Source: Scleropages formosus (taxonomy: Eukaryota). Taken from it: a DNA stretch of 64,000 bases. This document shows, in pieces, positions 1 through 28,231 of this stretch (positions are counted from its first letter, which is position 1; each line of letters opens with the position of its first letter). A program made the translations under genes and the position numbers. The stretch covers positions 16,582,297 through 16,646,296 of the forward strand of contig NC_041806.1 in the NCBI RefSeq assembly GCF_900964775.1, read 5' to 3'. Below the pieces are notes generated by a model. The model did no database searches, was not told the DNA's origin, and saw nothing but the letters and a program-made list of their open reading frames with translations.

Positions 1-880
1 CTTTTTCCCCCGCCATCGAATCCAACTCACCACCAGGTGGTGATCAGTTGACAGCTCAGCCCCTCTCTTCACCCGAGTGTCCAAGACATATGGCCGAAGG
101 TCAGAAGAAACGACTACAAAGTCGATCATCGACCTCCGACCTAGGGTGTCCTGGTGCCAAGTGCACTGGTGGACACCCTTATGCATGAACATGGTGTTCG
201 TTATGGATAAACCGCGACTAGCACAGAAATCCAATAACAACTCACCGCTCGGGTTCAGATCAGGGAGGCCGTTCCTCCCAATCACGCCCCTCCAGGTATC
301 ACTGTCGCTGCCCACGTGGGCGTTAAAGTCCCCCAGTAGAACGACAGAGTCCCCAGTGGGAGCGCTTTCCAGCACGCCCCCCAGGGACTCTAAAAAGGCC
401 GGGTACTCTACACTGCCGCTAGGCGCATAAGCACAAACGACAGTGAGAGACCGTTCCCTGACCCGAAGGCGTAGGGAGATGACCCTCTCATTCACCGGGG
501 TAGACTCCAACACATGGCGGCTGAACTGGGGGGCTATTAATAAGCCCACACCAGCCCGCCGCCTCTCACCTTGGGCAACGCCAGAATAGTGGAGAGTCCA
601 CCCTCGATCGAGCAGAGTGGTTCCAGAACCCAAGCTGTGAGTGGAAGTGAGCCCGACTATATCTAGACGGTATCTCTCAACTTCCCGCACCAGCTCAGGC
701 TCCTTCCCCGCCAGTGAGGTGACATTCCAAGTCCCAAAAACCAGAGTTGGCGCCCGAGGTTCGGGTCGGCCGGGCACTCGGCCCCGACCACCGCCCAAAT
801 CACAACGCACCGGCCCCTTATGGTTTCTCCGGCAGGTGGTGAGCCCACCGAAGAGAGAATTACATAAAAATGTATTCCAA
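1..880 (-). mobile_element. Non-LTR retrotransposon fragment (CR1/L2/Rex-like apurinic endonuclease region), degenerate, cut by the window edge
   Basis: Reverse-complement translation of about 1-420 gives [111 protein letters not shown]. This is the canonical APE-type EN of CR1/L2-clade LINEs. Stop codons and frameshifts are present. The RT part would lie left of position 1. Confidence 0.6.
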
Positions 881-1041
881 ACATGCATATATTAACATCT
901 CTCTATAGTTTGGAGCCTGTTTCAAACTTGAAATAATTTATGACATTCTGAATCTTACTCCATAATTCTTCTTCACATGTGAAAATTTGTTTCTGGTTAT
1001 TTTCCATTCCTGACAGATTTTTTCTTACAAACTGTTCAAAA

Positions 1042-1167
1042 ATGGATCACAGACTGATATTTGCTATGACCTTGGTTGCCGGATTTTTAATACTGGAAGG
1101 AGGGACAGCCACAATCTCAACATCCGGTAACGCTACTTTCAACACATTTGATGTGCAGCCTCTCGCT
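1042..1167 (+). CDS. DOMON-repeat gene exon 1 (start codon, signal peptide)
   Basis: ATG at 1042. Encodes MDHRLIFAMTLVAGFLILEGGTATISTSGNATFNTFDVQPLA, with a hydrophobic signal-peptide-like N-terminus. The donor GTAAGT at 1168 has the same exon end ...QPL(A/T)|gtaagt as the module D exons. Confidence 0.6.
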
Positions 1168-1768
1168 GTAAGTATTGCACTTGCACGACACGTGGTATTT
1201 TCTCGGAAATAATTAATACAGACTCCGCCTGACTGCTTTCATTCACCTGTTGGTATCAATCAATTAGAATCTGAATGAGTTTTACTGGCCAGTGTGCTGA
1301 GGCACACAAGGTATTTCCTCTGGTTCTAGGTGCCTCCAATATTTACAGACAGACAGACAAACAAACAGCTGACAGAAAAAAAATTTAACTGGTTGGAAAA
1401 TGGGACTAAAAACAGGACAAATAAACAAAAAACAACAAAAGTACTGGAGGGCACCGCACTGAGGCAGCCATGTGTGGCGCCATCTTGATATATTCCGAGT
1501 TAGTAAATGGATGGTTGAAATACAGAAGCATACAGAAGTGCGCGAGTGAAGTAGCTCACACAGTCCGTGTTGTGAACCGAGAATGGTGTCACCTTCTCTT
1601 GTAACGACCTCTTTGCTATTCTGTTGCTAAATATTTTAATTAGTGTGAATTGCTGGTGTAACTCACTTCATGATGCAACTTTACAATTCTGTCTGAAATT
1701 GGTGCATAGATGATAGTAACATTAATGGTGAAGGTCGTGAATGTGTGTTGTGTTGATGTGGCCAACAG

Positions 1769-1960
1769 ACAAACATCACAAACGCAATGTGTGGACAGAG
1801 GAAGCTGTGTCTCACCATACCCACCTCCTGTGACCCAGCAGGCAGTGCACCATGTCTGTTTGCCTCCGCATCCATCTCATCGCAAGGAAACCTATTTTTT
1901 GAGCTCAGAGGGATTTCCAATGTGTACATTGTTCTGGGACTGAGCTCAGACAGCTCACTG
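1769..1960 (+). CDS. DOMON module 1 exon A (192 nt)
   Basis: Acceptor cag|ACAAAC, donor |gtaatc. Encodes TNITNAMCGQRKLCLTIPTSCDPAGSAPCLFASASISSQGNLFFELRGISNVYIVLGLSSDSSL. Confidence 0.75.
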
Positions 1961-2156
1961 GTAATCTCCATACTGCATTCCACACCTCACTCACACCTGC
2001 TTCCAGAAAAAGTACAGTTTCAAACTGTTGATGTTTAGTGGCAACGAGTCAGTATCAGATTTAGGGGACAATATACTATTTCCAGAATCATCTGTTCTTC
2101 ATTTGTGCCCTGAGACTTCAACCACTGTAGTTGTGATGGAATCTCTCCATCTAGAT

Positions 2157-3378
2157 CAGAGGTGTCAAACTCAAGGCCCGCCCCCTCATTTTATGCGGCC
2201 CGTGAGAGCTTACAAATTATTTTATTGTTATTATAAATTTTATTTTCGGGACCTGAAAATGCATCTCAGTTTCATTGCCTGCGCGATGAAGGCATCTAGT
2301 CAGTAGACGGCAATGTCTGGATATCTGTTTTATCCTGCAGCGGCGTTCTAGAAGGAGTGATAGGATTAGTAAAAAAAATACGAATAGACCCATCATGTCG
2401 AAGAAAAGAAAAGTTGATGCAAATGTATAAGTAATGATTTTTTCTTAATTTCATGAATTAAGGTAGTTTAGAATGTCACAGAGAAATCTGAGCGTGTGCT
2501 CACATCCAGCACAAGCATGTGTTTTTGTTACCTCATTTATTTTTTAAATAAACTGTACAATAGCTGTACACTTGAATACACTTTATCATTATATTTGTCC
2601 TGGGCTTCTACTTTCAAAGTTAGGTATTAATTGAGTTATTACCACAACCAGTAGTAATTGAATGCAGAGGTAATTATGTAATGTAATAAAAGAGTAGATA
2701 CATCAGAATCAGAATCAGAACGAGCTTTATTGCCAAGTATGTTCACACATACAAGGAATTTGTCTTGATGACAGAAACTTCCACAGCACAGACAGAATGA
2801 CAGTGACAAGACGCAGATGAGAAGATAGAATATATGAATAAAGGATAAAAAATGTATTAAAAAATAAAAAGTACACAATATACAAAAATAGTCACTAGAC
2901 ATTATATGTATGTACAGATATGTTCTATACAAATGCAAGGGAATGTAAGACATATGATGTGATAAATCGATAAAATTATAAATATAAATAGCATTGTGTA
3001 TTGCACTGGTTTACTCTCTAGGTGGGAATTGGCTGTTCATGAGGTAGATGGCCTGAGGAAAGAAACTTTTCTTGTGCCTGGCTGTCCTGGTGCTCAGCGC
3101 TCTCTAGCACTGGTCAGATGGCAAAGGTTCGAAGAGGAAGTGGCCTGGATGTGAGGGGTCTAGAATGATTTTGCTAGCCTTTTTACTGACTCTGGACAAG
3201 TACAGTTCTTGGAGAGCTGGGGGGTGTGCCGATGATTCTTCCAGCAGTCCGAACTATCTGCTGTAATCTTCTGATGTCTGATTTCGTACATTCATATAGT
3301 CTTCCAGTTACAACCGGCCCTTTAAGAGCAACCATAATGCTGATGCAGCCTGGGATGAAACTGAGTTTGACACCCCTG
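2157..3378. mobile_element. Non-autonomous TIR element (hAT-like MITE) inserted in intron A1-B1 of the DOMON gene; internal part carries a nested LINE 3' fragment
   Basis: Termini are CAGAGGTGTCAAACTCAAG on the left and the inverse ACTGAGTTTGACACCCCTG on the right. The flanking 8-mers atctagat and gtctagtt are an imperfect TSD. The element is absent from the paralogous intron of modules 2 and 3 (...ccatctagatgctgggatcc...). Confidence 0.45.
2690..3290 (-). mobile_element. 5'-truncated copy (3' end about 600 bp) of the same LINE family as 18303-21731
   Basis: Reverse complement matches the LINE ORF C-terminus (..QQIVRTAGRIIG..AIYLMNT*) and the 3' UTR ending in (GATTCT)n: tcagaatcagaatcagaacgagctttattgccaag. 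Confidence 0.6.
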
Positions 3379-3433
3379 GTCTAGTTGTATATTTAAATTC
3401 CTAACGCCTTTGTATTCTGTTTTTTCTATTCAG

Positions 3434-3520
3434 CAAAATGGTTTCATGTTTGCCTGTGGTCAAATGAATGGCAATGCGTCCTTTCTATACACAAATAATT
3501 CACTGAACCCAAATTACCAG
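3434..3520 (+). CDS. DOMON module 1 exon B (87 nt)
   Basis: Acceptor ttctattcag|CAAAATGG, donor |gtaaga. Encodes QNGFMFACGQMNGNASFLYTNNSLNPNYQ. Phase 0. Confidence 0.7.
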
Positions 3521-3788
3521 GTAAGATGGTACAACTTTTTGAGATCATTACAATTAAAGACACAAAACAGCACTGTAAAGAACTGGATACTGAATTTTTA
3601 TTCAGCTGTAAACCAGCTAAAATAAACTGGTATAAGGATATAGATTGATAAGTAATCATCTTGAATTCTACAGCATAACTTTCTCCTAAATGATGGTCTC
3701 TGTAAAATTCTGTAGACCAAGAGTTTAAGTTGTCATGGTATGTGGTGAAGCCTCTCTGATATATCATGACATTTTCATCTGTTTTCAG

Positions 3789-3936
3789 TACCAAGTGGTC
3801 TCAGCTTCGGGATCAGTGAGTGGGAATGTCCTTCAGTGCACCTTCCAAGTTTCTGGCCTCACTTCCTCGATCCTGAATTTTTTTACTCAGATCAACAACT
3901 TGTACGTCTTCCTTGCTACTGGCAACATCATCAATG
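3789..3936 (+). CDS. DOMON module 1 exon C (148 nt)
   Basis: Acceptor ttttcag|TACCAAG, donor G|gtaaag. Encodes YQVVSASGSVSGNVLQCTFQVSGLTSSILNFFTQINNLYVFLATGNIING. Ends in phase 1. Confidence 0.75.
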
Positions 3937-4122
3937 GTAAAGATTCACACAGTTGGTGAACGTTCACCATCTACTTTCTACACACTACTGAGCGAAACAC
4001 CGAGAAAGCAGCTCAACTGCTCTCTTCATGCTGCACAGCAAAAGAGTGATTGTTCCTAAATAAGTAATTCAAGCGCAATTAATTGTTCCTAAAACTATTC
4101 TAATGTGTAATTTATTTTGCAG

Positions 4123-4247
4123 GAATGTCACAATCATCTGCCGTTCAGTTGTTCAACACAAGCTCCATTGGCCTAATTAATATGGCCAACTTAATCACAT
4201 TCTTCAACAACCTGCTTTATGTTCCCATTTCCACGCAGCCTCTGACT
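4123..4247 (+). CDS. DOMON module 1 exon D (125 nt)
   Basis: Acceptor ttttgcag|GAATG, donor ACT|gtaagt. Encodes (G)MSQSSAVQLFNTSSIGLINMANLITFFNNLLYVPISTQPLT. Confidence 0.7.
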
Positions 4248-4700
4248 GTAAGTACACATGGAGACTAATTACTTATGTTCTCTGGATGTTAATATGTAGT
4301 TGCCATCACTGTCTTTAATTGACTTTGAGTGTTACTACCTGTATTTTTCTCTTGTTAAATGTTTGAACCAGTGTGAGATACTGCTAGTCCTAGTTTGTGA
4401 AGCTGTATGCCAGGACTCTTCATCTGATACCTGTGGACCAAATCCTTTTTCATCCAGTCCTTTAGTTGATTTTTTACATTAAAAATTAAAAAGCTATTAT
4501 GTCTGCAAAAAAAAAAAAACTTATTGGTCAAGTGGTCAGCTGAGATCTACTCATTTTATTATTCATTCCGTATTATTGGGGGTATTTTCTGTTCTCTTGA
4601 AATGAACCGTGATTGGAACAAATTTTAAGTATGATTACAAAGATATAAGAAAGACAACATACCAAGAGCATGGCATTCCAGCCTATTGTTACACAATTAA

Positions 4701-4912
4701 GGGGGTGCGGTGGCGCAGTGGGTTGGACTGCAGTCCTACTCTCCGGTGGGTCTGGGGTTCGAGTCCCGCTTGGGGTGCCTTGCGACGGACTGGCGTCCCG
4801 TCCTGGGTGTGTCCCCTCCCCCTCCAGCCTTGCGCCCTGTGTTGCCGGGTTAGGCTCCGGTTCCCCGTGACCCCCTATGGGACAAGCGGTTCTGAAAATG
4901 TGTGTGTGTGTG
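4701..4912 (+). mobile_element. tRNA-derived SINE, family 1 ((GT)n-tailed)
   Basis: Consensus-like GGGGTGCGGTGGCGCAGTGGGTTGGAC...GGGTTCGAGTCCCGC...(GT)n. TSD TTACACAATTA(A/C) flanks it. The paralogous site near 7857 is empty. Confidence 0.8.
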
Positions 4913-5280
4913 TTACACAATTACAAGTCACCCCAAGCACATTTTTCAAGATAGTTTTGTGTGTGTGATTCATATCACTTCAAATATCACCATTAATGTT
5001 AGTAAACACCCTTTGACACACAGTATTATATTTAGTGTAACTTTAAATGCTCACACACAAGTGCAGAGATTTGAGAATTACTCTGAAAATGTTTGGTCCT
5101 CCCTTCATTTTATATGTAATAATCTGCCCCTCATGAGAAAGTGGTTAAAGAACTCTGCTGTATGCTATTTAGACAAACAAAACATGGAGGATCATCGACT
5201 TACAAGTTAACACCTCAAACTGGAACAGTAACAATAATGGTGATGGTTCTGAAAATTTGTTGTGATCATGTGGTCCATAG

Positions 5281-5472
5281 GCAAGCATCACAAATGCAAC
5301 GTGTGGACAGAAGAAGCTGTGTCTCTCCACACCCACCTCCTGTGACCCAGCAGGCAGTGCATCATGTCTGTTTGCCTCCGCATCCATGTCATGGCAAGGA
5401 AACCTGGTTTTTGAGCTCAGAGGGAATTCCAGTGGGTACATTGCACTGGGACTAAGTACAGTAAACCCAACG
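5281..5472 (+). CDS. DOMON module 2 exon A (192 nt)
   Basis: Encodes ASITNATCGQKKLCLSTPTSCDPAGSASCLFASASMSWQGNLVFELRGNSSGYIALGLSTVNPT. Acceptor ccatag|, donor |gtaatc. Confidence 0.75.
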
Positions 5473-5915
5473 GTAATCTCCATACTGCATCCCATCCCTC
5501 ACTCACACCTGCTTCCAGAAAAAGCACAGTTGAAAACTGTTGATGTTTAGTGGCAACAAGTCAGTATCAGATTTAGGTGACAATGTACTATTTGCAGAAT
5601 CATCTGTTCTTCATTTGTGCCCTGAGTCTTCAACCACTGTAGTTGTGATGGAATCTCTCCATCTAGATGCTGGGATCCTTTTCTTTATTTTCCTGCTTTC
5701 ACTTACTGAGAGTATCCTGACATTAGGGTCAATGAACTATTTGCGCACTTTCTACACTGTCACCAGGCAACTGTTTACATTCATTACCTTTGTGTTTATA
5801 AGATTTGGTACACTGTAGTTATTATTATACTTGCTGACAACTAACTCCTTTGTTTATTTTGATTTTTAATTTCGATGTTTTCATTTTTTTTTTTTTTTTT
5901 TTTTATCATTTCCAG

Positions 5916-6011
5916 CTAAATTCCGTTGTGTTTGCCTGCGCACAGCAAAATGGCAGCATCTTTTTGCACACCTTCCTGCTCAAAGACAGTATTCTTTCCA
6001 ACTTCACCTCT
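5916..6011 (+). CDS. DOMON module 2 exon B (96 nt)
   Basis: Encodes LNSVVFACAQQNGSIFLHTFLLKDSILSNFTS. Polypyrimidine tract (T)n precedes acceptor tttccag|. Donor |gtgagt. Confidence 0.75.
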
Positions 6012-6294
6012 GTGAGTTTTACTATTCATTGTTTTTACACCTCACTCCATTTGGTAATACAAGACACTGTTGTAGAGTGAAAAACTGGGAATTACATGAA
6101 TTGTGATTTTTAAAGCAGTGTTACAAAGGTCTGTTTTTGTTTTTTTTCAATATAACAGTATTGAACTCCATTGTATAACTATACTGTACTGGGTTACCGT
6201 CTGTACGCTGTTAGAGGAATTTAGGCTTTATTTTGGTGTTTTGTGAAGTGGTGGTGGTCTGTGGTGACGTCAGTGGATTTCCATCTGCTTTCAG

Positions 6295-6442
6295 TACCCA
6301 GTGGTCTCAGCTTTGGGATCAGTGAGTGGGAATGTCATCCAGTGCACCATCCAAGTTTCTGGCCTCAATTCTGTGATCTTGAATTCTGTAACTCAGACCA
6401 AAAACTTGTACAGCTTCCTCGCTACTGGAAGCATCACCAACG
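6295..6442 (+). CDS. DOMON module 2 exon C (148 nt)
   Basis: Encodes YPVVSALGSVSGNVIQCTIQVSGLNSVILNSVTQTKNLYSFLATGSITNG. Donor G|gtaaag. Confidence 0.75.
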
Positions 6443-6594
6443 GTAAAGATTCACACAACTGGAGAAAGTTCACCATATACTTTCTATACACTACTGAGCG
6501 AAACACTGAGAAAGCAGCTCAACTGCTCTCTTCATGCTGCTCAGCAAAAGAGTAACTGTTCCTAAAACTATTTCCATTTATAATTTGTTTACAG

Positions 6595-6719
6595 GAATAC
6601 CAGGCCTTCCTGTCGTTCAGTTGGTCAACACAGATTTCTTTGGCCTAATGAATATGGCCAACTTCATCACCTTCTTCAACAACCTGCTTTATGCTCCCAT
6701 GGCCACACAGCCTCTGACT
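6595..6719 (+). CDS. DOMON module 2 exon D (125 nt)
   Basis: Encodes (G)IPGLPVVQLVNTDFFGLMNMANFITFFNNLLYAPMATQPLT. Donor |gtaagt. Confidence 0.75.
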
Positions 6720-6821
6720 GTAAGTACACATGGAGACAGTACACATCTGAGTTACTGTTCTCTGGATGTTAATATGTAGTTGCCATCACTGTCTTTAATT
6801 GACTTTGAGTGTTACTACGTG

Positions 6822-7029
6822 GAGAGGGGGCGCGGTGGCGCAGTGGGTTGGACCGCAGTCCTGCTCTCCGGTGGGTCTGGGGTTCGAGTCCCGCTTGGGG
6901 TGCCTTGCGATGGACTGGCGTCCCGTCCTGGGTTTGTCCCCTCCCCCCTCCGGCCTTGCGCCCTGTGTTGCCGGGTAGGCTCCGTGACCCCGTATGGGAC
7001 AAGCGGTTCTGAAGATGTGTGTGTGTGTG
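6822..7029 (+). mobile_element. tRNA-derived SINE, family 1
   Basis: 12-bp TSD TGTTACTACGTG lies at 6810-6821 and 7030-7041. The paralogous site in module 1 (near 4325, gagtgttactacctgtattttt) is empty. Confidence 0.85.
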
Positions 7030-7529
7030 TGTTACTACGTGTATTTTTCTCTTGTTAAATGTTTGAACCAGTGTGAGATACTGCTAGTCCTAGTTTGTGA
7101 AGCTGTATGCCAGGACTCTTCAGCTGGCACCTATGAACCAAACCATTTTCTTATCCAATCCTTTAGTTGATTTTTAACACTAAAAACTAAAAAGCTATTT
7201 TGTCCAAAAAAAAAAACAAAAAATGCTCTTCTTGTGAAAAATGCACCCACTCCAAATTCCTCAAACAGGAAATGGCTGTTACTTTTAGCCCCACCCACAT
7301 ACTGTCAGATTTTGATTGGATGCTTCTGACTTTCATGACTTTGTTATGAGATCCTGTATTAATCACTCTCTTTGAAAGTTAGTAAATGCAGTTTTGCTTG
7401 TTAGAAGAGAAAGAGGACCCTGGTTGTTAGATGTGTACCTTACATAAACTATATAATCAGAAATAAAGAAAAATCATGAAGGTCACCTGAGATCCACACA
7501 TTTTGTTATTCATTCTATATTCCTGCAGA

Positions 7530-7743
7530 GGGGGTGCGGTGGCGCAGTGGGTTGGACCGCAGTCCTGCTCTCGGGTGGGTCTGGGGTTCGAGTCCCGCTT
7601 GGGGTGCCTTGTGGCGGACTGGCGTCCCGTCCTGGGTGTGTCCCCTCCCCCTCCAGCCTTACGCCCTGTGTTGCCGAGTTAGGCTCCGGTTCCCCGTGAC
7701 CCCGTATGGGACAAGCGGCTCTGAAGGTGTGTGTGTGTGTGTG
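7530..7743 (+). mobile_element. tRNA-derived SINE, family 1
   Basis: 12-bp TSD TATTCCTGCAGA lies at 7518-7529 and 7744-7755. (GT)n tail. Confidence 0.85.
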
Positions 7744-8226
7744 TATTCCTGCAGATATTTTCTGTTCTCTTAAAATGAACCGTGATTGAAGCAAGTCATG
7801 AGTAAGATTCCAAAGATGTAACGAAGGCATCATATCAAGGGCATGGCATTCCAGCCTATTGTTACACAATTACAATCCAACCCCCAGTACATTTTTCAAG
7901 ATAGTTTGTGTGTGTGATTCATATCAATTCAAATATCACCATTAATGTTAGTAAACACCCTTTGACACAGTACTATGTTTAGTGTTACTTTTTATGCTCA
8001 CATGTAAGTGCAGAGATTTGAGAATTACTCTGAAAATGTTTGGTCCTCCCTTCATTTTATATGTAATAATTTGCCCCTCATGAGAAAGTAGTTAATGAAC
8101 CCTGCTCTATGCTGTCTAGACAAACAAAACATGGAGGATCATCGACTTACAAGTAACACCTCAAACTGGAACAGTAGCAATAATGGTGATGGTTCTGAAA
8201 ATTTGTTGTGATCATGTGGTTCATAG

Positions 8227-8418
8227 GCAAGCATCACAAATGCAACGTGTGGACAGAAGAAGCTGTGTCTCTCCACACCCACCTCCTGTGACCCAGCAGG
8301 CAGTGCATCATGTCTGTTTGCCTCCGCATCCATGTCATGGCAAGGAAACCTGGTTTTTGAGCTCAGAGGGAATTCCAGTGGGTACATTGCACTGGGACTG
8401 AGTACAGCAAACCTAACG
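8227..8418 (+). CDS. DOMON module 3 exon A (192 nt)
   Basis: Near-identical to module 2 exon A, with the same flanking intron sequence. Confidence 0.75.
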
Positions 8419-8831
8419 GTAATCTCCATACTGCATTCCACACCTCACTCACACCTGCTCCCAGAAAAAGTAGTTGAAAACTGCTGATGTGACAATATAC
8501 TATTTCCAGAATCATCTGTTCTTCATTTGTGCCCTGAGACTTCAACCACTGTAGTTGTGATGAAATCTCTCCATCTAGATGCTGGGATCCTCTTCTTTAT
8601 TTCCCTTCAGCTTTTTGTGAACCCTGCTTCCATTAACTGAGTGTATCGTAACATTAGGGTCAATTAACTATTTGTATACTTTCTACATTGTCACCAGGCA
8701 ACTGTTTACATGCATTACTTGTGTTGATAGGATTTAATACATTGCAGTTATTAGAATGCTCAGTAATTGCAAACTCTTTTATTTATTTTGAATTTTAATT
8801 TTAATGTTCTTCATTTGTTTATCATTTCCAG

Positions 8832-8927
8832 CAAAATTCCATTGTGCTTGCCTGCGCACAGCAAAATGGCAGCATCTTCGTGTACACCTTCCAGCTCATT
8901 GACAATATTCTGTACCAGTCCACCTTT
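8832..8927 (+). CDS. DOMON module 3 exon B (96 nt)
   Basis: Encodes QNSIVLACAQQNGSIFVYTFQLIDNILYQSTF. Donor |gtgagt. Confidence 0.75.
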
Positions 8928-9077
8928 GTGAGTTTTTACTGTTACTTGTTTTTCCACCCGACTCCGTTTAGCAATACAAGACACTGTTGCAGAGTGTTAT
9001 ATGAGCAGTCATTTATAAAGCAGACTGTTACATAGGTCTGATTTTTTCTTTTAAATTTAACTGTGTTGAACCTGGGG

Positions 9078-9295
9078 GGGCTTGGTTGCACAGCGGCTTT
9101 GGCCCGTGTCTGCTCTCTCGTGGGTCTGGGGTTCGAGTCCTGCTTGGGGTGCCGTGTGACGGACTGGCATCCCGTCCTGGGTGTGTCCCCTCCCCCTCCA
9201 GCGTTACCCCCTGTGTTGCCGGGTTAGGCTCCGGCTCGCTGCGACCCCGCTCGGGACAATCAGTTTCAGTCAATGTGTGTGTGCGTGTGTGTGAG
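9078..9295 (+). mobile_element. tRNA-derived SINE, family 1 (diverged copy)
   Basis: Same architecture with several substitutions. Lies in intron B3-C3. The paralogous introns near 6150 and 10800 lack it. Confidence 0.7.
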
Positions 9296-9406
9296 TATTG
9301 AACTTTGTAGTATAACTTTACTGTACTGGGTTACAGTCTGTACACTGGTAAAGGCAATGAGACTTTATTGTGGTGGTGACATCAATGGATTTCCATCTGT
9401 TTTCAG

Positions 9407-9554
9407 AACCCAGTGGTCTCAGCTTCGGGATCAGTGAGTGGGAATGTCATTCAGTGCACCTTCCAAGTTCCTGGTCTGAATTACGTAATCTTGAATTCTG
9501 TAACTCAAGCCAAAAACTTGTCCGTCTTCCTTGCTACTGGCAGCATCACCAACG
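9407..9554 (+). CDS. DOMON module 3 exon C (148 nt)
   Basis: Encodes NPVVSASGSVSGNVIQCTFQVPGLNYVILNSVTQAKNLSVFLATGSITNG. Confidence 0.75.
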
Positions 9555-9686
9555 GTAAAGATTCACACAACCATTTACTTTCTATACACTACTGACACTG
9601 AGAAAGCAGCTCAACTGCCCTCTTCATGCTGCTCGGCAAAAGAGTAACTGTTTCTAAAACTATTTTCATTTATAATTTATTTACAG

Positions 9687-9811
9687 GAATGCCAGGCCTT
9701 CCTGCCGTTCAGTTGGTCAACACAGATTTCGTTGGCCTAATGAATATGGTCAACTTCATCACCTTCTTCAACAACCTGCTTTATGTTCCCATGGCCACAC
9801 AGTCTCTGACT
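9687..9811 (+). CDS. DOMON module 3 exon D (125 nt)
   Basis: Encodes (G)MPGLPAVQLVNTDFVGLMNMVNFITFFNNLLYVPMATQSLT. Donor |gtacgt. Confidence 0.7.
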
Positions 9812-10114
9812 GTACGTACACATGGAGACAGTGAACATATGAGTCACTAGGAAACTGAACAGACTCTGATTACTTGTTTCTGTCCTCTGGATGTTAATGT
9901 GTAGTTGCCATCAATGTCTTTTACTGACTTTGAGTGTTATTTCTATATCTCTTTTCTTAAATGTTTTAAGCAGTGTGAGATACTGCTAGATTGTGAAGTT
10001 GTACGCTGCTGAGACAAAAAAAAGCCTGAAGTATTTCCAAGTGACACCTGAAACTAGTGCACTTATGACAGTAACAGTGATGATGAAGGTTCTTAATGTA
10101 TGTTATGATTACAG

Positions 10115-10315
10115 ACAAGCATCACTCGCACAACCTGTGGGAACAGCAAGCTGTGTGTGGCAACACCAGTATTATGCAACCCAGCAGGCAGTACTCCGTG
10201 TCTGTTTGCCTCCATCACCAACACTTCCTCACTACAGAACACCAATGTCACTATAGAACTTCGAGGGGATTCTAGTGGCTACGTTGCAGTAGGAGGGAGC
10301 TTAACACAATCAACG
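10115..10315 (+). CDS. DOMON module 4 exon A (201 nt)
   Basis: Encodes TSITRTTCGNSKLCVATPVLCNPAGSTPCLFASITNTSSLQNTNVTIELRGDSSGYVAVGGSLTQST. Three codons longer than other A exons. Donor |gtaaca. Confidence 0.7.
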
Positions 10316-10557
10316 GTAACATCTGCACCATGTACACCCTACTTTTATTTACTTACATTAATTTACTTACATATATTTACTTACTTATATCCTTACATTA
10401 TGGTTAATGAACTGTTTGTTCAGTATTTACACTCTCTCCAGGCTTTGCATTTATAGGTTTCAATACACTCTAGTTATAATAATGCTCAGTTACTACTATA
10501 TCTTGTCTTAAATCTCAATTTGAATTTTGATGTTCTTCATTTGTTTATCATTTCCAG

Positions 10558-10653
10558 CAAAATTCCATTGTGTATGCCTGTGCACAGCAAAATGGCAGCA
10601 TCTTCGTGTACACCTTCCAGTCCATTGACAATATTCTGTACCAGTCCACCTTA
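10558..10653 (+). CDS. DOMON module 4 exon B (96 nt)
   Basis: Encodes QNSIVYACAQQNGSIFVYTFQSIDNILYQSTL. Confidence 0.7.
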
Positions 10654-10934
10654 GTGAGTTTTTACTGTTAATTAGTTTTTCCACCTCTGTCTGTTTGATA
10701 ATACAGACACTGTCATAGAGTGTAGAACTGGGAATTACATGAACAGTGATTTATAAACCACACTGTTGCATAGGTCTGTTTTTTAATTTAAATATAACAC
10801 TGTTGAACTTTGTGGTATAACTTTACTGTACTGGGTTACAGTCTGTAGACTGTTAAAGGCAATGAGGCTTTATTTTGGTGTTGTGAAGTGGTGGTGGGCT
10901 GTGGTGACATCAATGGATTTCCATCTACTTTCAG

Positions 10935-11082
10935 TACCCAGTGCTCTCTGCTTTGGGATCAGTGAGTGGGAATGTCATTCAGTGCACTTTCCAAGTTTAT
11001 GGCCTCAGTTCCTTGGTTCTGGGTTCTGGTCATCAGATCAGAGACCTGTATGCCTTCCTTGCTAATGGCAGCATCACCAACG
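10935..11082 (+). CDS. DOMON module 4 exon C (148 nt)
   Basis: Encodes YPVLSALGSVSGNVIQCTFQVYGLSSLVLGSGHQIRDLYAFLANGSITNG. Confidence 0.7.
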
Positions 11083-11252
11083 GTAAAAATCACGCAATTG
11101 ATGAGAGTTCACCAATACAAGTTTTTGCCACATACTGTAGTGCTGAACCAAACACAGTGAATTCAGCACTTTATAACATTCATCCTGAACTGAATCTTGT
11201 GTACTTTTCTTATGAATAAGTTAATGAATAGCATGATTGATCTTGTTCCCAG

Positions 11253-11338
11253 GAATACTGCAAGCTCCTGTCATTCAGTTGTCACCTACGTCACTCAACA
11301 GTAACAGTGTCATCCCCATTCCTACACTACCTCTCACA
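11253..11338 (+). CDS. DOMON module 4 exon D (86 nt, shortened)
   Basis: Encodes (G)ILQAPVIQLSPTSLNSNSVIPIPTLPLT. Donor ACA|gtaagg. Keeps phase 2-in/0-out like other D exons. Confidence 0.6.
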
Positions 11339-11609
11339 GTAAGGATAAGTGTATTGCTCCTTGGGAAATAACTAATGCAGTCTCACATTGTTGTTTTGTC
11401 CTCATTTTTGATCAACCTAGAATTGAAACAGACACAAAAATTGTCTAGAGATGAACTACTGCAGAATCAGGGAAATTACCTTGGACATGGGTTCAACAGC
11501 AGGAGTGGGATTTGAACTGTATACATGAAATAGATGCTGAAATTGGGGAAATGAAGACATCAATAACGGTGAAGATTTTTAATTTGTGTTATCATGATGT
11601 TGAAAACAG

Positions 11610-11801
11610 ACAAGTATCACTAGCACAAACTGTGGGAAGACCAAGCTGTGTCTGAGGACACCAAATGGCTGTAACCCAGCAGGCAGTAGTGAGTGCTTGT
11701 TTGCCTCCTCCGCCACCTCATCCCAAGGAATCATGACTTTTGAGCTCCGAGGACAGTCTAATGGGTACATTGCGTTGGGACTCAGCACAGCCAACACAAC
11801 G
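11610..11801 (+). CDS. DOMON module 5 exon A (192 nt)
   Basis: Encodes TSITSTNCGKTKLCLRTPNGCNPAGSSECLFASSATSSQGIMTFELRGQSNGYIALGLSTANTT. Confidence 0.7.
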
Positions 11802-12006
11802 GTAACTATACATCATACAGCACCATACAGAGGCTCCAGTGACAGAAATATAGTCAACAGATACTTCTGCTTTGTTATGTAACTGGTGATTTTTCCTTGT
11901 ATGCTAAAAAACCTTTGATATCCTCATTATTAATTCTCTAATCTTAAATATTTGCATATTTTGCTTTAGCAGCTAACCTTTGTGTTGTCTTTGTTTGTAT
12001 TTTTAG

Positions 12007-12102
12007 CAATATGCCATCATGTTTGCCTGTGCACAGCTAAGTGGCACTGTCTCCCTGTTCAGCACCAAGCTCATAAACAGTTCAGTGATCCAGGACAGTT
12101 CA
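12007..12102 (+). CDS. DOMON module 5 exon B (96 nt)
   Basis: Encodes QYAIMFACAQLSGTVSLFSTKLINSSVIQDSS. Donor |gtgagt. Confidence 0.7.
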
Positions 12103-12735
12103 GTGAGTGTTTTCATTGTTTTTTATGCAAATTCTGTTACATTCCTTTGCTGCATTTTGCCTCAATTATAATATATTGCCTATTAGGCTGACTGTTACTT
12201 GCAGCATAGCTTGACCTGCATGGCAGTCTCTGTAGCCTGTGAGCTCAGAAGTAATGAGATGAATTTGCATGGTTGTTAGCCTGTGGTGACCCATTCTGTG
12301 GGAACCACAAGCCTGGGACTGTGGGATTTCCTTTTACCTGTCCTTTCACACACCTTTTTGGTGTCATATGTGCTTTGAATGTGCTGGCAGTTAGGAGGAA
12401 TACTGTGTACTGCAAGGACAGGAACTTTTTGTGAAAGTTTGCTTGCAGGATGTTTTGAGGAACAGCGTGGAGGACCTGAAGGTCTGGCCCAGAGTCTGCA
12501 AGACCTAAATTCACCAAGGCCACCTTGGGCCTCTGAGAAAGAGGAATATGAATAGTGTGTTGTGGTAGTAGTGTGTGAGACTTGTGTCATTCAGATTTGG
12601 AGGGTTACACCTATGAAGAAAAAACCAACTCTAAACTCTTTGTCCTTGTATGGCATTGAGAACCAGGATTCCATGCCACAAATAAACACCTGAATCCAGC
12701 AGCAGTGAAGCTTGTCTGTTCCCCATCTGTTTCAG

Positions 12736-12883
12736 ATCAGTGTGGACAACATTCAGGGGACGCAGAATGGAAATGTTATTCGGTGCACTTTTAATACTGC
12801 TGGCCTCAGTTCCACAGCCTCAAAGATTCGTGCACTAAATACCACCTTTTTTGTCTTCCTTGCTACCGGAGATGTCAACAATG
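12736..12883 (+). CDS. DOMON module 5 exon C (148 nt)
   Basis: Encodes ISVDNIQGTQNGNVIRCTFNTAGLSSTASKIRALNTTFFVFLATGDVNNG. Confidence 0.7.
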
Positions 12884-13018
12884 GTAAAAAAAAAAAAATT
12901 GCTTTGCATACCAGCTGTTGAAGTGTATATTTACAAACAGCTCACTTTATGGTGTTTGCCAAAACCACCAAATTACCAAAAATATCAGACTTTGTAAAAT
13001 TGTAATTTTTCTCCCCAG

Positions 13019-13123
13019 GAACACTGCAAGCTCCAGTCATTAAGTTGCAACCTGTCTTGGTTGACCTGGCAAATGCCACTGTTAACTTATTTTCAAGCAG
13101 CCCACCCATTCACTCCTATTCAG
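13019..13123 (+). CDS. DOMON module 5 exon D variant (105 nt)
   Basis: Encodes (G)TLQAPVIKLQPVLVDLANATVNLFSSSPPIHSYS. Donor G|gtaacc. Ends in phase 1. Confidence 0.55.
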
Positions 13124-13293
13124 GTAACCAGTTCAAAAAATCTTGCAAAAAAAGTGATATTCTGAAATGCTGCCAGTTACTGTTCTTATATATTTCTTTC
13201 ATCACTTTTTCACTTAAGATGATATTACTTCCAATTTTCCAGTGTGTATCAGGAAAATATAGTTAAATTAATTTGTTTTTGCTTTATTTCCAG

Positions 13294-13337
13294 CTTTGCT
13301 AATCCTACTTAGTGTGGTGCCCTTCCAGCTGTTTTGA
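13294..13337 (+). CDS. DOMON-repeat gene terminal exon (hydrophobic C-terminal tail plus stop)
   Basis: Acceptor tatttccag|. Completes the codon from the previous exon and encodes ALLILLSVVPFQLF followed by TGA at 13335-13337. Small residues (SYSA) followed by a short hydrophobic tail resemble a GPI-attachment signal. AATAAA-like signals follow, for example around 13600. Confidence 0.5.
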
Positions 13338-14592
13338 GGAAAATCTAAATCAATCAGGTCAAGAAGACAGAGGGTGGTCGATGTGTTGTCAACCTTTCCA
13401 ATGCTCAGAAGATTGACATATATAAAAGCTCTCTATCATCTAATATTAAAATTACTCACTAATGTGACTATAAAATCACCTACTCTGTGTGTGTGTGTGT
13501 GAGTGACAAAGTGTGTTTCACTTAAAGATGAAGTTGTAAGACTTATTGTAAGTTCGAGGAACAATTCACTGAGTACAAAAAGTGATGAAATCATTAAATA
13601 CTATACAGTATAATAAAAGATAACCTTTATTACCTTTGCGAACCAGAATCATGAAGTGGGTATCTGTGAAAGTCCTTTTCTGCTTTTTCATATGGTGGTG
13701 TTTTCTTATCCCAACACTGAAATTAATTAAATGTATCCTTTGGAATTTGTGTCTGTTAATATAATAATAAAAGGTTTGGAATGAATTAAAATTCTGGTGA
13801 GAAATTTTTTTCTACACAGAATCAAAACTACGTTTTCCATTAATTTTGTTTCCAAAGAATGTCTTTAAGAAGCTTGAATATTTGCATGATAATATCTGAA
13901 AGGAGCAAAGGTGTCAGAAGCACCATCTGGGTCTCAGTTAGATTCTGCCACTTTAGCCATGGGAACTTCACTACTAGTAATATTTTAGTAGTAGTATTTT
14001 GAGCTGAATTGAAGCATCAGCTAAATGAATAAAAATCATGAGAAAACCAAAGTGACAGCACCACTTCTAGAGAGTGAGCTTGAGCACCACTTAAAAGAGC
14101 GATTCTTTTTATTTTGAATAACAACACATAAAACAATAGAAACACAAGTGTACATAGCATTTCTAAAAACATATCAGAAAGCATGATCGGGATACACAGT
14201 ACAAATACACATCATAAAAAGGTTAAACTAAATAAAGACAAAGTACATGCTGCTTTCATATTTTGACATTTTGAAGAAGTTTGCAAATATCTCTTTAAAT
14301 GTATTTTTAAGTCTTCAAATGTAGGACTCTTCCCTGAACCTTTTACTTTACCTTTTAAAGTCCAAAATGAGGAATTCCAGTATACTGTAACTGCGAGGAT
14401 ATTTTCAACTTGGAATATGGATCTTAAAGATTTTTTCTTACATCCATAGTTTAAATATTCTTTCCTTGCAGTCTGATATGAACTACAAATTTTTAAAACA
14501 TTTCTAATAGACAGCTATTGCCATTCTTTAGAATTGATATTTCCTTAGGAATCACATTCATTATGACAACATTGAACAGAATTAATAAAAAT

Positions 14593-18461: not shown

Positions 18462-18658
18462 TGGGGGCACGGTGGCGCAGTGGGTTGGACCACAGTCCTG
18501 CTCTCCGGTGGGTCTGGGGTTCGAATCCCGCTTGGGGTGCCTTGCGACGGACTGGCGTTCTGTCTTGGGTGTGTCCCCTCCCCCTCCAGCCTTACGCCCT
18601 GTGTTACCGGGTAGGCTCTGGTTCCCCGTGACCCTGTATGGGACAAGTGGTTCTGAAA

Positions 18659-18699
<41 letters not shown>

Positions 18700-18796: not shown

Positions 18797-21428
18797 GTGC
18801 TGCCTAGTATCCATCTGGCGAACCTCCGCTCCTTACCCAACAAAATGGACGAACTTTTCCTCCTGTCCCAAAGAAACAAGGACTTCTTAAATTCTGCTGC
18901 TCTGTGTTTCACGGAAACCTGGCTGAATGAAGCCATCCCGGACAGCGCGCTACATCTGCCGGGCTTCCAGCTGTTCAGAGCGGATCGCGGCGGGGAAATC
19001 ACGTGGCGGTGGGACATGCTTCTACATCAACGAAAGGTGGCGTACAGATGTAACAGCGTTGAAGAAGATGTGCTGTCCCGACCTAGAAGCGCTCTTCATC
19101 AACTGCAAGCCTTTCTACTCGCCGCGGGAGTTTTCCTCGTTCATCCTCGTAAGTGTTTACATTCCACCCCAAGCGTGCATGAACGCAGCGCTGCAACAGC
19201 TGGGCGACCAGATCACTGACACAGAGCAACAACACTCGGACTCTGTTATAATTATTCTCGGGGACTTTAATAAAGCAAATCTCTCCCGTGAACTGCCAAA
19301 ATACAGACAGCATATTACATGTCCCACCAGAGACAGTAATATTTTGGACCACTGCTACACCACAGTAAAGGATGCATATCACTCTGTTCCACGGACAGCT
19401 TTGGGGCTCTCTGATCACTGTCTGGTTCATCTTGTACTGACCTACAGGCAAAAACTGAAATCAGCTAAACCTGTAATAAGGACTGTTAAAAGATGGACTG
19501 GGGAAGCAGAGCAGGACTTACAAGCCTGCTTCGAGTGCACCGATTGGAGTGTCTTTGAGGCTGCTGCTAGCGATCTAGATGAGCTCACAGACTCTGTAGC
19601 ATCATATGTCAGTTTCTGCGAGGATATGTGCATCCCTACCAGGACTCGTTTAACATACAACAATGACAAACCGTGGTTCACTGCAAAACTCAGACAGCTT
19701 CGTCAGGCCAAAGAAGACGCCTACAAGAACGGGGACGGAGTCTTGTATAAACAGGCCAAAAACACACTGGCAAAGGAGATCAGAGTGGCTAAGAGAAACT
19801 ACTCTGAAAAGCTGAAGAAACAGTTTTCAGCCAACGATCCTGCATCAGTGTGGAAAGACCTGAAAGACATCACAAATTACAAGACACCACCCCCCGGCAC
19901 CGTGTCAACTCAACAACTAGCCGACGATTTGAATGAGTTTTATTGTAGGTTTGATAAACCCTGTCTCACACCCCACACCCATTCAGACCCTCTCTCCACA
20001 AATCGATTAACACCTCCAGTAACCCCCACCTCCCCCCCTCCTGCACCTTTGATCTGCGAACAGGAGGTGCGTCGGGTCTTCGTCAAACAGAAGACAAGGA
20101 AAGCACCAGGCCCAGACGGTGTCTCACCGGCCTGCCTAAAAACCTGTGCTGACCAGCTGGCCCCTATCTTCACAAAGATCTTCAACAGATCACTGGAGAT
20201 GTGTGAAGTTCCTTCCTGCTTCAAACACTCCACCATCATCCCCATCCCAAAGAAACCCAAAATCACAGGACTTAATGACTACAGACCTGTCGCCCTAACG
20301 TCTGTGGTCATGAAGTCACTTGAAAAACTGGTGTTGGACTACCTGAAAGACATCACTGGACCCTTGCTGGACCCCCTGCAGTTTGCTTACCGAGCAAACA
20401 GGTCTGTGGATGATGCAGTCAACATGGGACTGCACTACATTCTGCAACATCTGGACAAACCAGGGACTTATGCAAGAATCCTGTTCGTGGACTTCAGCTC
20501 AGCCTTCAACACCATCATCCCACACCTCCTCCTGTCCAAATTAACCCAACTCTCTATGCCCACCTCCATCTGTCAGTGGATCACCAACTTTCTGACAGAC
20601 AGGCAGCAGATAGTGAGGCTGGGAAAATTCTCATCCAATACTCGCACAATCAGTACTGGAGCCCCCCAGGGATGTGTGCTCTCCCCACTGCTCTTCTCCC
20701 TGTACACCAACGACTGCACCGCAAAAGACCCCTCTGTCAAACTCCTGAAGTTTGCAGACGACACCACACTCATCGGCCTCATCCGGGATGGTGATGAGTC
20801 TGCTTACAGACAGGAGGTCCAAGAGCTGGCTGTCTGGTGCAGTCATAACAACCTGGAGCTGAACACGCTCAAAACAGTGGAGATGATCGTGGACTTCAGG
20901 AGAAACACCTCAGCATTATCCTCACTTACCATCATGAACAGCACTGTGGCAACAGTGGAGTCATTCAGGTTCCTGGGCACCACCATCTCACAGGACCTGA
21001 AGTGGGAGCCCCACATAGACTCCATTGTGAAGAAGGCCCAGCAGAGGTTGTACTTCCTTCGCCAGCTGAGGAAGTTCAACCTGCCACAGGAGCTACTGAT
21101 GCAATTCTACTCCGCAGTCATTGAGTCCGTCCTCTGCACCTCTATAACTGTCTGGTTTGGCTCAGCTACGAAGTCAGACATCAGAAGACTGCAGCAGATA
21201 GTTCGGACTGCTGGAAGAATCATCGGCACATCCCCCCCAGCTCTCCAAGACCTGCACTCGTCCAGAGTCAGTAAAAGGGCTAGCAAAATCATTCTAGACC
21301 CCTCACATCCAGGCCACTTCCTTTTCGAACCCTTGCCATCTGGCCGGCTCTACAGAGCACTGAGCACCAGGACAGCCAGGCATAAGAAAAGTTTCTTTCC
21401 TCAGGCCATCTACCTCATGAACACCTAA
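18797..21428 (+). pseudogene. LINE ORF2 (endonuclease plus reverse transcriptase), one frameshift
   Basis: ORFs 18797-19219 and 18927-21428 overlap in different frames. Together they give about 877 aa of EN-RT. Confidence 0.7.
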
Positions 21429-22671: not shown

Positions 22672-23081
22672 ATGTCCCCCCGGCGCGGAAGCGTTGGACC
22701 CAAGTGCGGAGCACAGGAAGTGGAGTCAAGGGGCGATCCAGTAGACCTGGTCAGGAAAACAGGCAAAAGGGTCACCGATCTTAGAACAGAATCCGAAGGG
22801 CAAATCCGAAAGTCGTTGTCCAAGAAAACAGGCGAGAAGTCATGGCAAACCAGGAAGTCGTAACCGAGGAGCAGGACAACGAGGAGCAGGACGACAAGGA
22901 GCAGGACGACAAGGAGCAGGACAAGGAAACAGGGAGGTCAGGAGATCGGTAACAAGAAGCGCGAGTGAGAGGCTAGGCTGAACAAGGTTCCGCAACTTCT
23001 TGCAGTCCGGGCTGTCCTTTTATGTGCCCAGACCCTGATCAGCTGCAGGTGTTGCTTGTTACAGAGGTGGAGGGCATGACA
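22666..23081 (-). repeat. 5' LTR of chromovirus A
   Basis: Pairs with 14593-14994. Contains short GAGCAGGACGA repeats in the U3-like part. Confidence 0.75.
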
Positions 23082-23116
23082 AAAAATATTATATCTATTA
23101 ACAAAGCTGATTATAT

Positions 23117-23120
<4 letters not shown>

Positions 23121-23174
<54 letters not shown>

Positions 23175-26852: not shown

Positions 26853-26891
26853 TCGATGTTGTAGGAGCCGCCTGAGGACCGCCCGGACCTG

Positions 26892-28172: not shown

Positions 28173-28231
28173 AAACCGGTCGAAGTCCTCCTACTCACCC
28201 CTGTACGTGAGCTCGTCCTGGATCCGGGGAT

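Follow-up and report, generated by a model that had tools for sequence, protein, structure and literature searches.

LOC108937868 of Scleropages formosus (Asian arowana) encodes five tandem DOMON modules between a signal-like N-terminal segment and a hydrophobic C-terminal tail, and, in our alignments, both of the residues that ligate haem b in related domains, Met and His, are replaced in all five modules. We consider it probable, though far from certain, that the product is a non-redox surface protein that evolves fast, is N-glycosylated and probably GPI-anchored, resembles FRRS1L in build, with the DOMON in tandem, and was expanded by duplication of an exon cassette within the gene.

The locus is a single intact protein-coding gene. 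As proposed in the first-pass annotation, its 22 exons, placed by flanking sequence at positions 1042-13337 on the + strand of the window (the whole stretch of 64,000 nucleotides that was analysed), form a complete gene: they join into a 2916-nt ORF of 971 aa without a frame break, frame shift or internal stop codon, ending in ...SYSALLILLSVVPFQLF*, with the stop at 13335-13337. The introns are GT...AG without exception, with each of the 42 splice sites intact. Over its whole length the product is identical to RefSeq XP_018613577.2, which is recorded as "uncharacterized protein LOC108937868", and to UniProt A0A8C9RMM4; the exact gene model is not new, being already present in RefSeq and Ensembl. 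An Ensembl isoform of the gene (P0001) skips module 3. Exact-sequence look-ups in assembled read sets returned no match to the gene.

Each DOMON module is encoded by four exons, here denoted A to D, and starts and ends in phase 0. This plan and the inner phases (0, 0, 0-to-1, 2-to-0) agree with the earlier description, but the uniform lengths of 192, 96, 148 and 125 nt given there do not hold: exon C has 148 nt in all five modules, whereas from module 1 to module 5 exon A measures 192, 192, 192, 201 and 192 nt, exon B 87, 96, 96, 96 and 96 nt, and exon D 125, 125, 125, 86 and 105 nt. The introns between modules are of unequal size, largely because of copies of a SINE-like repeat, which is represented 15 times in the whole window; besides the copy listed in the table, copies lie in introns of this gene at 6825-7030, 7529-7742 and 9110-9288.

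Table 1. Layout of LOC108937868, in positions of the window
Feature	Position	Strand	Remarks
Exon 1	1042..1167	+	ATG, predicted signal peptide, short N-terminal linker; GT donor, phase 0
DOMON module 1, aa 43-226	1769..4247: exons 1769-1960, 3434-3520, 3789-3936, 4123-4247	+	Met column Leu
DOMON module 2, aa 227-413	5281..6719: exons 5281-5472, 5916-6011, 6295-6442, 6595-6719	+	Met column Thr
DOMON module 3, aa 414-600	8227..9811: exons 8227-8418, 8832-8927, 9407-9554, 9687-9811	+	Met column Thr; mosaic
DOMON module 4, aa 601-777	10115..11338: exons 10115-10315, 10558-10653, 10935-11082, 11253-11338	+	Met column Thr
DOMON module 5, aa 778-957	11610..13123: exons 11610-11801, 12007-12102, 12736-12883, 13019-13123	+	most diverged; Met column Thr
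Exon 22	13294..13337	+	hydrophobic C-terminal tail, aa 958-971, and stop codon
SINE-like repeat, intronic	4700..4913	+	outside the coding unit

The assignment of the five modules, each of about 180 aa, to the DOMON family is supported by several comparisons. Pfam PF03351 (DOMON) matches the whole protein in five stretches with 77.7 bits (E 1.1e-21; curated cut-off 32.7 bits), although module 5, when taken alone, scores 26.6 bits and falls below the cut-off. By hhalign, the alignment of arowana-family DOMONs matches an alignment of FRRS1-type DOMONs at 99.7% (E 4.8e-27); the latter comprises 14 modules of b561-bearing proteins, namely genuine reeler-DOMON-b561 FRRS1 proteins including that of Arapaima. 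The six Cys of the two alignments coincide, and this framework is kept in all five arowana modules. Family-wide, the invariant positions are the six Cys and core Gly, Phe, Leu, Ser and Pro residues. An AlphaFold2 model of the DOMON (pLDDT 86, pTM 0.83) has the predicted beta-sandwich fold of the type found in the DOMONs of CDH cytochrome and DBH. Judged by these alignments, the five modules are descendants of the DOMON of FRRS1-type ferric-chelate reductases, in keeping with the earlier description of them as FRRS1-type. The landmarks that they have in common with the DOMONs of the CYBDOM proteins FRRS1, SDR2 and Drosophila CG8399 are CGxxKxC...C...C, GY(I/V)AxG(L/F)S, C and QC(T/S)F.

Unlike these proteins, which combine a reeler, a DOMON and a cytochrome b561, the arowana protein contains the DOMON only, and the first-pass annotation was right that the other two domains are missing. 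The 971-aa protein has no match to PF02014 (reeler) or PF03188 (cytochrome b561). In tblastn searches, DOMON-like sequence was confined to 1.7-13.2 kb of the window; with the reeler-bearing proteins of Arapaima, loach and gar as queries, the DOMON exons gave the only significant matches in the window, this search reaching 1041 nt 5' of the ATG, where the window begins, and no b561-like match was found in the 50 kb downstream.

The haem-binding DOMONs of the FRRS1 family carry a Met in an S-x-D-x-x-M-G-x-D loop and an axial His (PMC10691727). Across modules 1 to 5 of the arowana protein, the Met column reads Leu, Thr, Thr, Thr, Thr, and the His position reads Ser, Pro, Pro, Pro, Pro; the entire protein contains four His, none of them conserved between modules. 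The axial Met is present in all 14 b561-bearing reference modules and in 30 of 32 modules of b561-bearing relatives, compared to 15 of 223 modules of tail-only proteins. The Thr of an N-glycosylation sequon takes the place of the former Met in modules 3 and 5 (N-L-T in module 3), and such a sequon is found in the former Met loop of 83 of 274 non-b561 modules but in none of the 32 modules of the b561 class. The first-pass annotation envisaged a haem/ligand-binding surface protein. In the fullest form of the haem reading, every module would hold one haem b and the array would serve extracellular electron transfer or haem capture. The replacement of both ligands in every module, the conversion of the Met position to a sequon Thr and the lack of a b561 domain as the electron supply make this reading very unlikely. 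Moreover, the DOMON of DBH, which is as good a structural match to the arowana DOMON as the cytochrome-type DOMONs are, is described as binding neither haem nor sugar (PMC10691727). The cytochrome domains of CDH and pyranose dehydrogenase, in which haem is ligated by Met and His (PMC10691727), differ from the arowana modules in this respect and are only 9-13% identical to them in sequence. With the canonical pair lost, a module could still hold haem by other ligands, or bind another cofactor. With the haem loop and the His lost and no b561 domain present, reductase function is therefore not expected for the arowana protein.

Comparison of the modules with one another shows that the gene expanded through tandem duplication of the phase-0 four-exon cassette, followed by exchange between the copies. 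Intron sequence is still common to modules 1-4. The genomic units of modules 2 and 3, introns included, are about 84% identical, compared to about 92.5% for their exons (42 differences in 561 nt), and identity varies among the exons (A 98.4%, B 83.3%, C 88.5%, D 95.2%). Module 3 is a mosaic, with exon A 98.4% identical to that of module 2 and exon B 93.8% identical to that of module 4. The dN/dS ratio is 0.46-0.58 for the older module pairs, in line with constraint. Between the youngest copies (modules 1, 2 and 3) it is 0.76-0.86, and therefore purifying selection on individual modules is weak or not demonstrable. These high ratios, together with annotated isoforms that lack whole modules and a module number that varies widely between species, could be taken to indicate a decaying or functionless recent expansion, in which the modules are neutral and the open frame is a short-lived accident of duplication. 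We regard such decay as extremely improbable, given the 2916 nt free of stop codons and frame shifts, the 42 of 42 intact splice sites, the retention of all 30 Cys across the five modules along with the core motifs, the lower dN/dS of the older pairs, the greater conservation of the module 2 and 3 exons compared to the unit with introns, and the persistence of the family across many fish orders.

The ends of the protein are consistent with entry into the secretory pathway and anchoring at the surface, as had been suggested from a signal-like start and a GPI-like tail. Hydrophobic segments are limited to aa 5-18 and aa 958-971. The former belongs to a predicted signal peptide in exon 1 (aa 1-23, MDHRLIFAMTLVAGFLILEGGTA|T) with an n/h/c layout and a cleavage site, G-T-A|T, placed by the -3/-1 rule. 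The N-terminal linker that follows ends in ...DVQPLA, similar to the ...ATQPLT with which the D exons close. The 14-residue tail encoded by exon 22, ALLILLSVVPFQLF, contains the highest 11-aa hydropathy window in the protein and is preceded, at the end of module 5, by a candidate GPI omega region, SSS-PPIHSYS, that is, three small residues and a 7-residue polar spacer. Similar hydrophobic tails end most of the relatives and recur in 117 of them.

The closest known parallel is FRRS1L, which likewise consists of a signal peptide, an FRRS1-related DOMON and a C-terminal hydrophobic tail, without a reeler or b561 domain. Mass spectrometry has shown a GPI anchor on a Ser that shortly precedes the FRRS1L tail, and both GPI-modified and full-length, tail-retaining forms were detected (PMC5500892). 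The same end layout as described for FRRS1L (PMC5500892), with Ser upstream of the tail, is seen in the arowana protein as SSS, spacer and tail. On the strength of sequence rules and this analogy, the five-DOMON protein is probably GPI-anchored. Alternatively, the same protein might lack GPI: it could be released entirely, into mucus or body fluid, or stay in the membrane through its uncleaved hydrophobic end; a tail of only 14 residues that includes Pro and Gln could in principle leave it secreted or weakly membrane-held, and the full-length form of FRRS1L is in line with this. Nevertheless, a 14-residue segment is short for spanning a membrane stably, and the classical GPI-signal layout, with no cytoplasmic residues, recurs at the C-termini of the 117 relatives, so that we give the alternative only a modest chance.

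The parallel with FRRS1L has its limits. FRRS1L has one DOMON as opposed to five, and its site of action is the ER of neurons, where it works with AMPA receptors (PMC5500892), whereas nothing ties the fish family to an AMPA-receptor role and the sole hint on expression points to surface epithelia. A seahorse relative, 31% identical, bears the NCBI name of zebrafish si:cabz01007794.1, a gene whose transcripts occur in the enveloping layer of the embryo, imaged there together with muc5.1, and also in an enterocyte cluster of the distal intestine and cloaca. For the arowana gene this hint is weak, the connection being the seahorse protein's NCBI name only; a search started from the seahorse protein recovered no zebrafish sequence.

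Under the model that we favour, a non-redox surface glycoprotein, the protein would enter the secretory pathway, be N-glycosylated at many of its 23 N-x-S/T sequons, be cleaved near Ser948-950 and then receive a GPI anchor, as single-DOMON FRRS1L does. The composition fits a glycoprotein, with 22% Ser+Thr and only about 5% charged residues, compared to 18.6% charged residues in modules of the b561 class. A two-module structure model (pTM 0.50) gives the linker a pLDDT below 50, so no fixed packing between domains is predicted, and on the outside of the cell the protein may resemble flexibly strung beads, each a glycosylated beta-sandwich. Its role would be that of a binding, spacing or protective part of an epithelial surface coat rather than an electron carrier.

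Plant AIR12, a haem-b DOMON with the Met/His ligands that the arowana modules lack, was reportedly described by Preger et al. in 2009 as a GPI-anchored DOMON cytochrome b. Insect Knickkopf is an extracellular, non-redox matrix organiser with a predicted GPI anchor and a strong affinity for chitin (PMC4140639). By description, Knickkopf is an example of a DOMON that functions at an apical surface without haem, although its architecture is different (DM13-DM13-DOMON, with a single DOMON and a large conserved C-terminal region). The arowana modules might act like sugar-binding DOMON/CBM9-type modules or like Knickkopf, with chitin, mucin glycans or a different polymer of the apical matrix as ligand and with avidity from the tandem copies. 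However, the family shows no conserved polar or aromatic residue in the pocket, and the similarity to CBM9 is much weaker than that to cytochrome-type DOMONs; such an array appears unlikely. A broader and quite doubtful conjecture is that the tail-only fish arrays without haem ligands, with 1-23 modules, form an undescribed class of GPI-anchored apical binders of chitin, mucin or microbial glycans, that is, functional counterparts of Knickkopf in vertebrates, with module number tuned by cassette duplication and skipping, and with fast, possibly pathogen-driven evolution.

The arowana protein is not isolated. A profile search recovered 719 relatives. The family is large and spans 1-23 modules per protein, with 2-23 modules in 45 of 117 tail-only cluster representatives; those that were looked up are all fish proteins, none with an assigned function, and literature searches on the haem-less fish DOMON family found no functional study. 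Given these numbers and the existing RefSeq and Ensembl model, the earlier suggestion that a protein made only of five DOMONs would be unusual has to be abandoned. Neither is it strictly true that FRRS1 carries a single DOMON: two DOMONs occur in P0058, a loach 'putative ferric-chelate reductase 1'. A b561 protein of a brittle star (P0031) has six.

Taken alone, the locus changes little, being one among many similar fish genes. The main useful outcome is a correction of naming: fish relatives are often automatically named 'putative ferric-chelate reductase 1', which is misleading for proteins that lack both haem ligands and a b561 electron source. Fish possess a large set of haem-less DOMON proteins that evolve fast, vary in copy number and are probably GPI-anchored. 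Should these turn out to coat surfaces or bind glycans in the epithelia of skin, gill or gut, they would bear on the mucosal barrier of fish and on host-microbe interaction, and would represent a clean case in which a redox domain has been put to structural or binding use.

Reading of window positions 1-14500, with each proposed exon anchored through its flanking sequence, gave 22 exons that join into a 2916-nt frame with no internal stops and encode a 971-aa product ending in SYSALLILLSVVPFQLF before the stop codon; all 21 introns of the DOMON gene (1042-13337) are of the GT...AG type. The first protein search led to the Asian arowana, Scleropages formosus, and by cluster look-up the assembled product is identical to XP_018613577.2 / A0A8C9RMM4, "uncharacterized protein LOC108937868" (971 aa). 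Exon assembly and RefSeq identity thus confirm the complete five-DOMON gene proposed in the first-pass annotation, which therefore rebuilt the exact RefSeq model from raw sequence. LOC108937868 is an already annotated, yet uncharacterised, member of a fish-wide family.

Each module consists of four exons, A to D, and the plan of 192/96/148/125 nt put forward for them holds as the modal plan but not as a strict rule, given that exon lengths vary: exon B has 87 nt in module 1, exon A has 201 nt in module 4, and exon D has 86 nt in module 4 and 105 nt in module 5. All five modules both start and end in phase 0. The possibility that the modules represent separate genes was ruled out, there being one start with a predicted signal peptide and one stop with a tail; furthermore, the internal modules lack start and stop features, and every junction is in phase.

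Features of the window, in window positions
Feature	Positions	Strand	Remarks
G+C-rich stretch	1-840		possible repeat or transposon fragment
DOMON gene, exon 1	1042-1167	+	anchored by flanking sequence
Module 1 exons	1769-1960, 3434-3520, 3789-3936, 4123-4247	+	anchored by flanking sequence
SINE-like repeat	4700-4913		~210 bp, GGGGGTGCGGTGGCGCAGTGGGTTGGAC...; in DOMON gene intron
Module 2 exons	5281-5472, 5916-6011, 6295-6442, 6595-6719	+	anchored by flanking sequence
Module 3 exons	8227-8418, 8832-8927, 9407-9554, 9687-9811	+	anchored by flanking sequence
Module 4 exons	10115-10315, 10558-10653, 10935-11082, 11253-11338	+	anchored by flanking sequence
Module 5 exons	11610-11801, 12007-12102, 12736-12883, 13019-13123	+	anchored by flanking sequence
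DOMON gene, exon 22	13294-13337	+	anchored by flanking sequence
SINE-like repeat, further examples	18463-18674, 35278-35488, 46842-47228, 53215-53425
Retroelement block, G+C-rich	18927-21428	+
Retroelement block, G+C-rich	21909-29793	-
ORF, 267 aa	39775-40578	+	probable ApoL-like coding exon
SINE-like repeat, head-to-tail pair	46841-47224
Retroelement block, G+C-rich	54708-59667	-

Pfam assigned DOMON (PF03351) to five stretches of the protein (E 1.1e-21), with a single module alone scoring slightly under the curated threshold. For module 5, an AlphaFold2 model built on A1, an alignment to which five fish species contribute 17 modules, is confident and all-beta (pLDDT 86.2, pTM 0.83). A profile-profile comparison matched A1 to A2, an alignment of 14 DOMON modules from proteins with a b561-type multi-helix C-terminus that includes the Arapaima "putative ferric-chelate reductase 1" (reeler + DOMON + b561), with a probability of 99.7% (E 4.8e-27); the two alignments also agree in the positions of their six invariant Cys. 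Therefore, the earlier designation "FRRS1-type DOMON", borne out by the Pfam assignment and by this match, is correct as a statement of descent. Structure prediction for two modules yielded two independent sandwiches with undefined packing (pTM 0.50, linker pLDDT <50), which suggests that the modules may form a flexible chain of independent beads.

Similarity among modules 1-4 extends across the introns, and the units of modules 2 and 3 share ~84% identity along nearly all of their length; the match of module 5 to the others is almost wholly exonic, with the addition of short intron stretches that adjoin the exons. Modules 2 and 3 are 98.4% identical in exon A and 95.2% in exon D, and exon B of module 3 is nearest to that of module 4 (93.8%, as opposed to 83.3% to module 2). 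The shared introns and the mosaic exon identities indicate that the four-exon cassette was duplicated in tandem and that the copies later underwent unequal crossing-over or gene conversion. With dN/dS values (Nei-Gojobori) of 0.46-0.58 for the older module pairs and 0.76-0.86 among modules 1-3, the modules evolve fast, with the cysteines and the core kept. The inter-module introns are enlarged by several copies of the SINE-like repeat, which is present in 15 copies in the window (84-95% identity), 4 of them in introns of the DOMON gene.

UniProt contains three shorter products of LOC108937868, namely, one of 784 aa without module 3, another of 784 aa without module 2, and one of 781 aa in which exon 11 is joined to exon 16. 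The phase symmetry of the cassettes makes such products possible; they may be genuine isoforms or may stem from mis-mapping between the near-identical repeats. An exact-sequence look-up found no encoding contigs on record, either spliced transcripts or genomic neighbours, for the related protein records P0003, P0002 and P0012. The second of these (UPI000878B084, 582 aa) is an older, partial record of the DOMON gene that differs from the window in module 3 exon B (8832-8927), where it reads ...IVYACAQ...FQSID..., identical to module 4 exon B, and the window reads ...IVLACAQ...FQLID...; this difference may reflect allelic gene conversion or a discrepancy between assemblies in the repeated region. 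The S. formosus genome also encodes a paralogue, LOC108937867, with three modules, a like style of tail and 43% identity. Its location inside the window was ruled out, all its tblastn matches being exons of LOC108937868 itself (45-62% identity).

Elsewhere in the window, the ORF lying downstream of LOC108937868 has a Pfam match to Apolipoprotein L (PF05461, E 2.9e-38), and an ApoL-like gene probably has its large coding exon here. The three retroelement blocks comprise one LINE-type ORF with reverse transcriptase and two Ty3/gypsy-like elements that carry gag, protease, RT-RNase H, integrase and a chromodomain. The stretch at 1-840 lies directly upstream of the A+T-rich promoter region of the DOMON gene, contains stops in all three minus-strand frames, and resembles a repeat or a piece of a transposon.

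The reported absence of reeler and cytochrome b561 domains holds: Pfam matches neither in the LOC108937868 protein, hydropathy detects only two hydrophobic segments in its 971 residues (5-18 and 958-971), and tblastn with reeler- and b561-bearing relatives matches the DOMON exons only, ruling out hidden exons for these domains in the window. In FRRS1-type DOMONs, the axial Met resides in an S-x-D-x-x-M-G-x-D loop and the His near the last strands (PMC10691727). The Met is invariant in A2; in the alignment, the Met column of arowana modules 1-5 contains Leu, Thr, Thr, Thr and Thr, and the His position Ser, Pro, Pro, Pro and Pro. The entire arowana protein has four His, none at a position common to the modules. 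Across the 180 related proteins retrieved, with 306 modules that have a residue at the Met column, the split was sharp between proteins with a b561-like C-terminus (Met in 30/32 modules, one or more His among the final 60 residues in 29/32) and tail-only proteins, which end in a short hydrophobic C-terminus without b561 (15/223 and 29/223, respectively). Moreover, modules 3 and 5 have an N-x-T sequon (N-L-T, N-T-T) whose Thr occupies the former Met position, and a sequon occurs in the former Met loop of 83 of the 274 non-b561 modules compared to 0 of the 32 b561-class modules. Given the loss of Met and His and the sequons in the Met loop, canonical haem binding is not expected and, because the b561 partner is absent, so is the electron source. 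The haem-binding role anticipated earlier is thus not supported, both ligand positions being substituted in all five modules and the partner missing.

When 1.84 billion cluster representatives were searched exhaustively with a profile, 719 proteins matched at E ≤ 1e-3, 113 of these at E ≤ 1e-30. Among the best 150 of the 719 matches combined with word-index hits, 117 proteins were tail-only, with one module in 72, two in 23, three in 13, four in 3, five in 4, and 11 and 23 modules in one protein each. The claim that the architecture is unusual does not survive these counts, in which 45 of the 117 proteins hold at least two modules. Multi-module tail-only relatives are common, and therefore a five-DOMON tail-only protein such as that of LOC108937868 is no oddity but typical of its family, which is large, found in fish and unstudied. 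The sampled family names all come from fish, under the labels "uncharacterized protein", the similarity-derived "putative ferric-chelate reductase 1" or the spurious "mucin-5AC-like". The top of the copy-number range is occupied by a protein of the remora Echeneis naucrates (P0013, XP_029382781.1; 4752 aa) with 23 tandem tail-only DOMONs, and a catfish protein of 920 aa has five modules in a layout matching that of LOC108937868. The pipefish protein P0014 contains 11 modules. The literature searches turned up no description of the family or of its tail-only members with several DOMONs.

Five other related proteins (P0031, P0037, P0055, P0068 and P0147) combine 4-8 tandem DOMONs with a multi-helix C-terminal region, which in P0031 (1459 aa, from the brittle star Amphiura filiformis) is cytochrome b561 by Pfam, and keep the haem Met in nearly all modules. 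Unlike the arowana protein, these may be genuine extracellular electron chains with several haems. The gar (Lepisosteus oculatus) "putative ferric-chelate reductase 1" (P0008, 539 aa) has a reeler followed by two DOMONs, with the Met (…LSMGD…) retained in the first and lost in the second, and its record is seemingly incomplete at the C-terminus; it possibly represents a step on the way from FRRS1 to the tail-only family.

The arowana protein contains 23 sequons, 22% Ser+Thr and ~5% charged residues, compared to 18.6% charged residues in b561-class modules. Sequence rules predict a cleavable signal peptide (Arg4, hydrophobic 5-18, G-T-A|T at 21-24), heavy N-glycosylation (from the sequons and Ser+Thr content) and a GPI-attachment signal (S948-S-S950, spacer PPIHSYS and a 14-residue hydrophobic end). 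FRRS1L, a single-DOMON relative, has been shown by experiment to carry a GPI anchor on a Ser that immediately precedes a tail of this kind (PMC5500892), and the arowana protein would be a tandem, haem-ligand-less variant of that type.

A seahorse family member bears the name of zebrafish si:cabz01007794.1, a gene with transcripts in cells of the enveloping layer, imaged there together with muc5.1 (PMC9854193), and identified in larval-gut single-cell data as a gene of the distal-intestine/cloaca enterocyte cluster with additional enrichment in two clusters of the foregut (bioRxiv 10.1101/2020.12.13.422569). The matches found from this seahorse protein were all syngnathid proteins, apart from one of Pholidichthys, and none came from zebrafish. 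The zebrafish expression is the only functional hint for the family, an indirect one with putative orthology.

Of the interpretation initially offered, the architecture stands, whereas the rarity and the haem binding are not supported. The best reading is that the arowana protein would be a non-redox, glycosylated, GPI-anchored part of an epithelial surface coat; with Knickkopf (PMC4140639) as a model for putative glycan/chitin binding, a glycan- or chitin-binding role is a possibility by analogy. The interest of the finding is modest for the locus itself and somewhat higher for the whole family.
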